From the sequence record NC_049826.1: a DNA stretch of 51,662 nt; one strand, given 5' to 3'. The notes below the pieces were generated by a model. It was not told the origin of the DNA. It saw nothing but the letters and a program-made list of their open reading frames with translations, and searched no databases. Origin of the DNA: Escherichia phage aaroes. Made by a program: the position numbers and the translations under genes. Positions 48,110 through 48,198 of this stretch are shown here, piece after piece (positions within the stretch are counted from its first letter, which is position 1; the number at the start of each line of letters is the position of its first letter).

Positions 48110-48198
48110 TACTCATTCTCCAATAGCATTTTTTGTTAAACGATGATTTAATGATTGTGTATTATACACGCCAAATGGCATTACTCAAAGGTTTTAGA
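48110..48198. promoter_or_regulatory. divergent promoter region with a plus-oriented repeat core and an overlapping near-palindromic -10
   Basis: AATAGCATTTTTTGTTAAAC at 48122-48141; TGTATTATACA at 48157-48167 reads TATTAT on plus and TATAAT on minus. Confidence 0.5.

Follow-up and report, generated by a model that had tools for sequence, protein, structure and literature searches.

The 89-bp spacer at positions 48110–48198 of the genome of Escherichia phage aaroes (NC_049826.1; the 51,662 nucleotides analysed are referred to as the window) divides a leftward gene encoding a helix-turn-helix (HTH) protein from a rightward helicase gene. The spacer probably works as a single bidirectional promoter with two unlike halves built on a shared 7-bp −10 element, TATTATA. 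The leftward promoter, PHTH, would be active unaided, whereas the rightward promoter, Phel, would be activated through a marbox. The window is that of a T1-like phage of the Drexlerviridae, and the region is 96–98% identical to Hanrivervirus-type T1-like phages (damhaus, haarsle and pSf-1). The same divergent order of HTH and helicase genes is found across the Drexlerviridae, in T1, Tls, Webervirus, Warwickvirus, Henuseptimavirus and others. The HTH start codon is the reverse complement of positions 48107–48109, and the helicase ATG starts at 48199.

A shared −10 element conserved across genera

The −10 hexamer of Phel is TATTAT on the plus strand (48160–48165). That of PHTH is TATAAT on the minus strand (48161–48166), a perfect match to the consensus. 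The two overlap by 5 bp, as in bidirectional promoters of the type described by Warman and Grainger, in which −10 hexamers are shared by the two strands. An original prediction made from the window alone had proposed back-to-back promoters sharing a near-palindromic −10 with exactly these two readings, and both are supported by comparison, the plus hexamer by its register of 19–20 nt to an upstream repeat and the minus hexamer by its conservation across genera together with a −35-like hexamer. The sequence that it gave for the shared element, TGTATTATACA, exists, at 48158–48168, that is 1 nt to the right of the position 48157–48167 first assigned to it. Direct reading of the shared −10 revealed no extended −10 motif (TGn) on either strand.

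The −35-like hexamer of PHTH is TTGAGT (48183–48188, minus strand), separated from the −10 by 16 bp. In a promoter scan, TTGAGT-16-TATAAT was the sole match in the spacer scoring at least 9/12; with 10/12 it was the joint-best match between 46.5 and 50.5 kb. The scan returned no plus-strand site in the spacer, and the −10 of Phel rests on the register of the repeat family described below. From the −10 positions, the helicase mRNA is predicted to start at 48172–48173 (plus strand, 7 nt rule) with a leader of about 27 nt, and the HTH mRNA at 48154–48155 (minus strand) with a leader of about 45 nt that includes the repeat in reverse complement. These predictions place the two starts at a distance of 18 bp. 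The HTH gene is the first of a leftward unit and all genes upstream of it are on the plus strand, so that its promoter has to be located in the spacer or close to it. No other upstream promoter is possible on its strand in the window.

The spacer was compared with its orthologues (57 sequences, 42 of them distinct, from about 12 lineages). The orthologous spacers retain the upstream repeat. Between the repeat and the helicase ribosome-binding site, TATNATA is the only conserved island. When the sequences were anchored on the hexamer, the 20 nt on either side were found to be without conservation, and the spacer is otherwise unalignable. Eleven of the 12 lineages retain TATNAT together with the A that comes next. 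As these bases are conserved while the rest of the spacer cannot be aligned, the shared −10 stands above chance. Its centre base is T in nine of the twelve lineage representatives, which makes the leftward hexamer a perfect TATAAT and the rightward one TATTAT. A minus-strand −35-like hexamer is present at 16–17 bp from the −10 in four genera: TTGAGT (16 bp) here, TTGAAT in T1 (17 bp), TTGACT in Tls (17 bp) and TTGTCA in Webervirus (16 bp). The re-annotation of phage TLS arrived independently at a prediction of the orthologous leftward promoter, P57, which is among just three σ70-like intergenic promoters accepted in that genome (PMC11447400, Table S1). Judged from these sequence comparisons, the shared −10 is a genuine conserved bidirectional promoter.

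Several observations weigh against this conclusion. The A is lost in Vc1 (TATCATC). The minus-strand −35 is weak (3–4/6) in several lineages, and its overlap with the helicase ribosome-binding site could account for part of its conservation. The score of the minus-strand promoter is unremarkable genome-wide, since 16 matches of at least 10/12 are found in the window, and the scan of 4 kb gave nine sites where 7.2 ± 2.4 were expected from shuffled sequences. The overlap itself is statistically cheap: a minus-strand TAnnnT shifted by 1 nt requires only an A after the plus hexamer, and such an A is present in 9 of 34 other repeat-type promoters (26%). The minus-strand TATAAT could then be a by-product of the symmetry of a −10 that serves Phel only, and the promoter of the HTH gene would be at another place, such as within the coding region of the helicase. 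Bidirectional signals are indeed known to arise easily by chance in AT-rich DNA (10.1101/2020.01.31.928960). We regard this explanation as improbable, as the A is kept in 11 of 12 lineages with flanks saturated with change, the centre base favours the minus hexamer, TTGNNN recurs at 16–17 bp in four separate genera, and no other minus-strand candidate of at least 9/12 is present between 48110 and 49182.

The palindrome around the −10 and the HTH protein

The shared −10 is embedded in a perfect palindrome, GTGTAT-T-ATACAC (48157–48169), which is a candidate operator. It has no second copy in the window. A small dyad, AAATG-G-CATT(T), lies at 48171–48182 between the −10 and the −35 of PHTH, where it would form the first transcribed bases of the helicase mRNA. 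This dyad is perfect in Tls and Warwickvirus, while different dyads occupy the place in T1, Webervirus and others (GTAA-ACG-TTAC, CGCA-ACTA-TGCG). Both the palindrome and the dyad CCAAATGGCATT were considered as a repeated operator; they are unique or at chance level in the window.

The HTH protein (157 residues; 47636–48109, minus strand) is probably Cro-like, as judged from sequence matches. Its HTH domain, residues 55–89, scores below the Pfam cut-offs (YdaS_toxin, 29.8 bits for a cut-off of 30; P22_Cro, 25.2 for 30.2). The protein matches PHROG 2856, annotated as 'transcriptional regulator', with an E-value of 3e-78, and Cro-like chains of the PDB (5w8y, 2e-5; 3bd1, 3e-4). An AlphaFold2 model from the single sequence is poor, with a pLDDT (predicted local distance difference test) of 48, and has four helices in residues 44–101. 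The recognition helix is highly variable among lineages (SQQTVNQW, SNQTVQGW, SIQVVQQW, THQVIQQW, NLKTVWGW), whereas the repeat is invariant.

The original prediction suggested that the HTH protein may autoregulate and gate expression of the replication genes. In its concrete form, the protein would bind GTGTAT-T-ATACAC and repress both directions, as AcrR does at acrA/acrR. In its favour, a perfect 6-1-6 palindrome coincides with the shared −10, the protein is Cro-like, the palindrome is also found in Webervirus, L059 and IME-JL8, and a case is known in which a repressor encoded divergently acts on a bidirectional promoter (PMC12825309). We nevertheless hold this model to be rather unlikely. 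The two −10 hexamers already dictate 3 bp of each arm, and the additional GTG/CAC would occur by chance once in 64. Beyond TATNATA, the palindrome extends in only about half of the lineages: the arms are kept in Hanrivervirus, Webervirus, L059 and IME-JL8, but are missing in T1, Tls, K50, PHB17 and Henuseptimavirus. The genome contains no further copy, and no dyad of the spacer varies in step with the recognition helix: Tls has CAAATGGCATT in common with the window but a different helix. Finally, many promoters of the repeat family have dyads around the −10 without a divergent gene, and symmetry at the shared −10 may therefore be a trait of the family.

A repeat in fixed register with the −10

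In place of a −35, the helicase promoter has a 20-bp repeat, ATAGCATTTTTTGTTAAACG (48123–48142, plus strand), of the kind known as 'direct repeat' in T1-like phages, which would extend from about −50 to −31. The original prediction had noted a repeat core at 48122–48141, and the 20-mer AATAGCATTTTTTGTTAAAC is found there. It had regarded the repeat as a feature of the HTH mRNA leader. The repeat would indeed be transcribed into that leader, but it resembles primarily an upstream activator site of the helicase promoter. Eighteen intergenic direct repeats of 21 nt (DR1–18; consensus aaATAGCACnnnTTGnTAAAA) have been described in TLS. They are oriented with transcription and precede start codons by about 76 nt, and similar repeats were reported in T1, Rtp and Rogue1 (PMC11447400). 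The helicase copy, caATAGCATtttTTGtTAAAc (48121–48141, plus strand), is a member of this family. It lies 77 nt before the ATG at 48199 and is the orthologue of DR11, as the leftward promoter is the orthologue of P57. DR11 and P57 are listed separately in the TLS paper, in which the overlap of the −10 elements and the fixed distance from repeat to −10 are not remarked upon (PMC11447400). The function of the repeats is listed there as an open question, and a stoperator, an enhancer site or an UP element are offered as possibilities. Literature searches with the repeat sequence yielded nothing relevant, and likewise no transcriptomes or start sites of T1-like phages were found in the papers searched.

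The window contains 14 copies of the repeat with at most three mismatches, where 0.03 are expected, and each of them points toward the gene downstream. With a looser definition, at most one mismatch to the 15-mer GCAHWWWWTGYYAAA introduced below, the count is 22. These sites include those at 3228, 6071 and 8110 on the minus strand and at 10904, 12369, 13667, 15025, 16372, 40938 and 50650 on the plus strand. In 19 of the 22 copies, a hexamer [T/C]AnnnT follows the AAA of the repeat after 19–20 nt, for a background of 6.7% per site. T1 has 21 copies, of which 15 are in the 19–20 nt register and two more have the hexamer at 21 nt. The helicase copy is in the same register, with TATTAT 19 nt after AAA. 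Downstream of the hexamer, the repeat-type promoters continue with 5 nt, CATCGA(A/C)AACGA, and then a Shine-Dalgarno sequence. They have no −35 hexamer, as TTGTTA stands 22 bp away from the −10. The fixed register marks the repeat as a promoter element.

One copy is atypical. In the plus-strand repeat at 20593–20607, TATAAT follows AAA after only 6 nt and the usual register of 19–20 nt is absent. This copy is followed by a terminator-like hairpin, GGCTGG..CCAGCC with a T-run, ahead of the ribosome-binding site and the ATG. Two minus-strand repeats, at 28607–28621 and 24847–24861 (18833 and 15069 in the T1 sequence L001), oppose plus-strand structural genes, and each abuts the ribosome-binding site of the next plus-strand gene, an arrangement also seen at the HTH gene. 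Their positions are conserved in T1 and in TLS (DR7). At 28607, the minus-strand −10 TATCAT and a plus-strand CATGAT overlap, shifted by 1 nt as in the helicase spacer, and may belong to a second bidirectional promoter or to an antisense promoter.

The repeat could conceivably act without any protein reader. RNA polymerase might contact it directly as an UP-like element or a substitute for the −35, or it might be a roadblock of the 'stoperator' type. It does have an AT-rich T5...A4 stretch upstream of the core promoter, and both ideas were raised by the TLS authors (PMC11447400). This is very improbable in our estimation, as the invariant GCAC and TG are not features of UP elements, the TTGTTA at 22 bp from the −10 is too far for σ region 4, and a fixed register to the −10 is a property of promoters and not of roadblocks.

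The repeat as a proposed class II marbox

The repeat matches the marbox, the site bound by the E. coli activators MarA, SoxS and Rob, for which AYnGCACnnWnnRYYAAAY and GCAHWWWWTGYYAAA are published consensus strings (PMC6900184, PMC3709825). The helicase copy GCATTTTTTGTTAAA fits the 15-mer at 15 of 15 positions. The longer 19-mer, ATAGCATTTTTTGTTAAAC, departs from the consensus only at position 7, where it has T for C, which is allowed as H in the consensus derived from chromatin immunoprecipitation. There are 15 exact matches to GCAHWWWWTGYYAAA in 51.6 kb, for a naive expectation of about 0.02, and 13 of the 14 copies that had been found independently of the marbox are perfect matches to it. 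The conserved block begins at marbox position 0/1 and ends at 19/20, and the variable positions of the repeat (8, 9, 10, 14 and 19) are those at which the marbox is degenerate. The marbox of the mar operon itself, ATGCCACGTTTTGCTAAAT, read from the MG1655 sequence, shares 15 of 19 positions with the helicase copy of T1.

The geometry also agrees. A marbox of class II points forward, overlaps the −35 and is centred at about −36 to −55 (PMC12052159, PMC6900184). On the helicase coding strand the repeat is forward, with GCA distal and AAA proximal, and its centre lies at about −40 from the predicted start; RamA is located near −41 on micF in a cryo-electron microscopy complex (PMC8811837). AAA precedes the −10 by 20 nt in micF, measured with the annotated 5′ end of the RNA as anchor, by 20 nt in nfo and by 19 nt in fumC, the −10 elements of the latter two being our own reading; in the phage it does so by 19–20 nt. 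The phage promoters thus resemble the class II promoters of MarA, SoxS and Rob (RamA) in Enterobacteriaceae, such as micF, nfo and fumC, in the consensus AYnGCAC..RYYAAA, in orientation and in spacing. As in these promoters, there is no proper −35, and AAAACA stands at the −35 position in micF and in several phage copies. There are also differences. Host marboxes are degenerate and scattered, whereas about 20 near-identical consensus copies are present in 50 kb of phage DNA. A hairpin separates the site from the start in most phage copies, and positions 3 and 11 show extra invariance.

We tentatively propose that, in T1-like phages, the roughly 20 direct repeats represent consensus marboxes of class II, through which host MarA, SoxS or Rob (RamA), activators of the response to antibiotics and stress, would recruit RNA polymerase to early, replication and recombination genes, including the helicase gene. 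For the narrower statement that a host marbox-binding protein reads the repeat, the resemblance brings the likelihood close to an even chance, though hardly beyond it. This reading of the repeat is new and testable, and is unproven. Some points count against it. Positions 3 and 11 of the repeat are invariant although the marbox consensus does not require it. The repeat also holds a partial dyad, TAGCA-N5-TGYTA, centred near −42, which might be read by a phage protein acting as a dimer. In unstressed cells, little MarA or SoxS is present and most Rob is sequestered (PMC2787020), and reliance on scarce host activators is awkward for a fast lytic phage. No homologue of MarA or SoxS was found among the 717 six-frame open reading frames of the window (phmmer, best E-value 0.8). 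None of the papers searched links marboxes, MarA or SoxS to T1-like phages, and the KanT1 paper has nothing on promoters. Among bacterial genomes, the exact 19-mer gave 11 scattered single matches, which is the chance level, and the match in Enterobacter has no −10 in register.

That some phage protein reads the repeat instead is possible but fairly unlikely. The simplest candidate is a dimer of the HTH protein, which would bind TAGCA-N5-TGYTA near −42 and activate the approximately 20 repeat-type promoters, including that of the helicase. PHTH would then be an immediate-early σ70 promoter, and polymerase competition would let the HTH protein shut off its own production. Of the very few unaided σ70-type promoters in TLS, one belongs to the HTH gene, the product of this gene is the only annotated regulator in T1-like genomes, and the repeat and the HTH gene co-occur family-wide. 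The 5-N5-5 partial dyad lies at the classical class II position, with perfect arms (C at position 14) in 16 of 36 copies, and the invariant A3, which is not demanded by a marbox, suits the dyad. Weighing these points against those that follow, we consider this candidate unlikely. The strong variation of its recognition helix across lineages is hard to match with an invariant repeat. The conserved positions 1, 7, 17 and 18 are asymmetric, which the marbox explains and the dyad does not. Repeat promoters serve small genes at the end of the genome that are expected to be expressed earliest. The Klebsiella phage KP15 has two complete repeat-type cassettes. A search of its first 50 kb gave no HTH homologue, nor did the sampled rows of 841 tblastn matches, all of them records of 22.7–52.7 kb and none a genome of T4 size.

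Comparison with bidirectional promoters of Escherichia coli

About one fifth of the transcription start sites of E. coli lie in bidirectional promoters. Those with a shared −10 have been established experimentally, and 18 bp is the commonest spacing of their starts (PMC12825309). The phage spacer resembles these Warman/Grainger promoters in its overlapping −10 elements on opposite strands, its predicted starts 18 bp apart, and the two divergent genes producing mRNA.

It is proposed that the marbox-activated bidirectional promoter works as follows. PHTH would be an ordinary σ70 promoter that starts transcription near 48154 and should fire unaided, giving a short and probably monocistronic mRNA for the Cro-like protein. 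Phel, with TATTAT and a start near 48172, would have the family-wide repeat about 40 bp upstream in place of a −35. Since it lacks a −35 and carries a perfect marbox in the class II position, it would depend on an activator, most likely a host marbox-binding protein contacting RNA polymerase. As the starts are 18 bp apart, the polymerases would be mutually exclusive, and a polymerase bound in one orientation would shut out the other. Strong activation of Phel should lower PHTH by competition. The presence of the activator would thereby turn the helicase up and the regulator down, in a switch that senses the state of the host.

The earlier argument that two polymerases cannot occupy overlapping −10 elements at once agrees with the mutual exclusion established for bidirectional promoters of E. 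coli, and would be expected to hold here (PMC12825309). The 'built-in switch' drawn from it is plausible in the known sense of polymerase competition, in which an activator acting in one direction represses the divergent RNA through competition alone (PMC12825309). As a point against such a switch, bidirectional promoters usually show too little basal activity for polymerases to compete (PMC12825309). A switch therefore needs strong activation of one direction, and competition would matter under that condition only.

The closest analogue is acrA/acrR with SoxS, where a marbox lies on one arm and a gene for an HTH regulator on the other (PMC12825309; 10.1101/2020.01.31.928960). DNA-bound SoxS is no block to elongation (PMC12825309). 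The two systems differ in several respects. The acrA marbox is of class I, reverse, upstream and inside the start of acrR, whereas the putative phage marbox is forward and positioned as in class II. AcrR is of the TetR type while the phage protein is Cro-like, and the phage promoter belongs to a virulent phage and has starts predicted from sequence.

Flanking genes and the end of the HTH unit

The HTH gene has the Shine-Dalgarno sequence GGAG (48118–48121, minus strand), 8 nt before its ATG and abutting the repeat; its plus-strand equivalent (CCTC, CCCC or CTCC) is seen in every orthologous spacer. The helicase gene (48199–50244, plus strand) encodes 681 residues with ResIII/DEAD and Helicase_C domains and is annotated as helicase in relatives. 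Its Shine-Dalgarno sequence, AAAGG (48187–48191, plus strand), partly overlaps the −35 of PHTH and is kept as AAAGG or TTAGG in orthologues. Upstream in-frame TTG/ATG codons at 48133, 48151 and 48175 were considered as helicase starts and judged non-coding, because the lengths of the orthologous spacers, 86–94 bp, differ by non-multiples of three. In the relative MartyMcPhage, an open reading frame of 32 residues is annotated within the spacer (L002, 491–589). About 20 unannotated records named 'Campylobacter phage' with Campylobacter jejuni as host (for example MG065636.1 and MG065640.1) share 95–96% identity with this T1-like phage of E. coli and Shigella. Their stated host seems doubtful and raises the question of a contaminating coliphage.

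A compact arrangement ends the HTH unit (47594–47649, minus strand). A second repeat, GCACTAATTGCTAAA (47649–47635), encodes the C-terminus of the HTH protein (STNC-stop). It is followed by a hairpin, GCCTGGCA/TGTCAGGC, with a run of six T (47628–47594, −18.9 kcal/mol), which holds the primase −10 TATCAT (47614–47609) in its loop. The TLS equivalents of the repeat and terminator are DR10 and T57 (PMC11447400). As the hairpin with its T6 and nested repeat promoter ends the unit, the HTH mRNA is probably monocistronic and the primase probably has its own repeat-type promoter. Transcripts from upstream would stop at the hairpin while primase transcripts would start inside its 3′ arm. The true start of the primase is the ATG at 47580 (MNNENF...), and not the first ATG of its open reading frame at 47682.

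Hairpin cassettes and their occurrence in KP15

A strong dyad or hairpin lies between the repeat and the start in 24 of 36 repeat-type promoters (RNAfold z below −2 relative to shuffled sequences; mean z −3.0). Its end coincides with the −10, or else its loop contains the −10 hexamer; CATCGA(A/C)AACGA, the conserved start, comes next. The structure may serve as an insulating terminator, an RNA processing site or a recombination linker. At the level of the family, this organization resembles the PeSL cassettes of the T4-type phages RB49 and phi1, which consist of about 80–100 nt with an upstream element, a stem-loop placed before or over the −10, the −10 itself, a conserved leader and a Shine-Dalgarno sequence (PMC2839356). 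The helicase copy, in contrast to its family, has no stable stem-loop (−3.5 kcal/mol, z = −0.28). PeSLs combine a promoter with a terminator or insulator (PMC2839356), and the T1-type cassette is found in unrelated phages without its flanking genes. The likeness is one of design. PeSLs were described with a consensus σ70 promoter including a real −35 (PMC2839356), which the T1-type repeat promoters do not have.

KP15, a T4-like Slopekvirus of Klebsiella with a genome of 174 kb (NC_014036.1), has its two complete T1-type cassettes at 10042–10082 and 10386–10425 (L092, 10067–10085, minus strand). They comprise the repeat, a GGGGTA..TACCCC hairpin around TATAGT and the leader CATCGAAAC, and lie upstream of small open reading frames without T1-like homologues. 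One of them is annotated as 'putative middle promoter; discovered using MEME'. The other annotated 'middle promoters' of KP15 are not of the repeat type; only the two adjacent cassettes are. From these sequences, a cassette of about 80 nt, made of the putative marbox, the stem-loop, the −10 and the leader CATCGAAACGA, appears to move between unrelated phage families without its genes.

Biological significance

As a bidirectional promoter, the HTH–helicase spacer represents ordinary biology, yet it is a clean cross-genus case in a virulent phage, coupling a regulator gene to replication genes. The likeness of the repeat to the marbox in sequence, orientation, spacing and degeneracy turns the question left open for the TLS repeats into simple experiments. 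If the marbox reading is true, a notorious family of lytic phages, of E. coli and of Klebsiella, would rely on or sense the regulators behind multidrug resistance in their hosts. This would have a bearing on the combination of phages with antibiotics and on the behaviour of phages in the gut.

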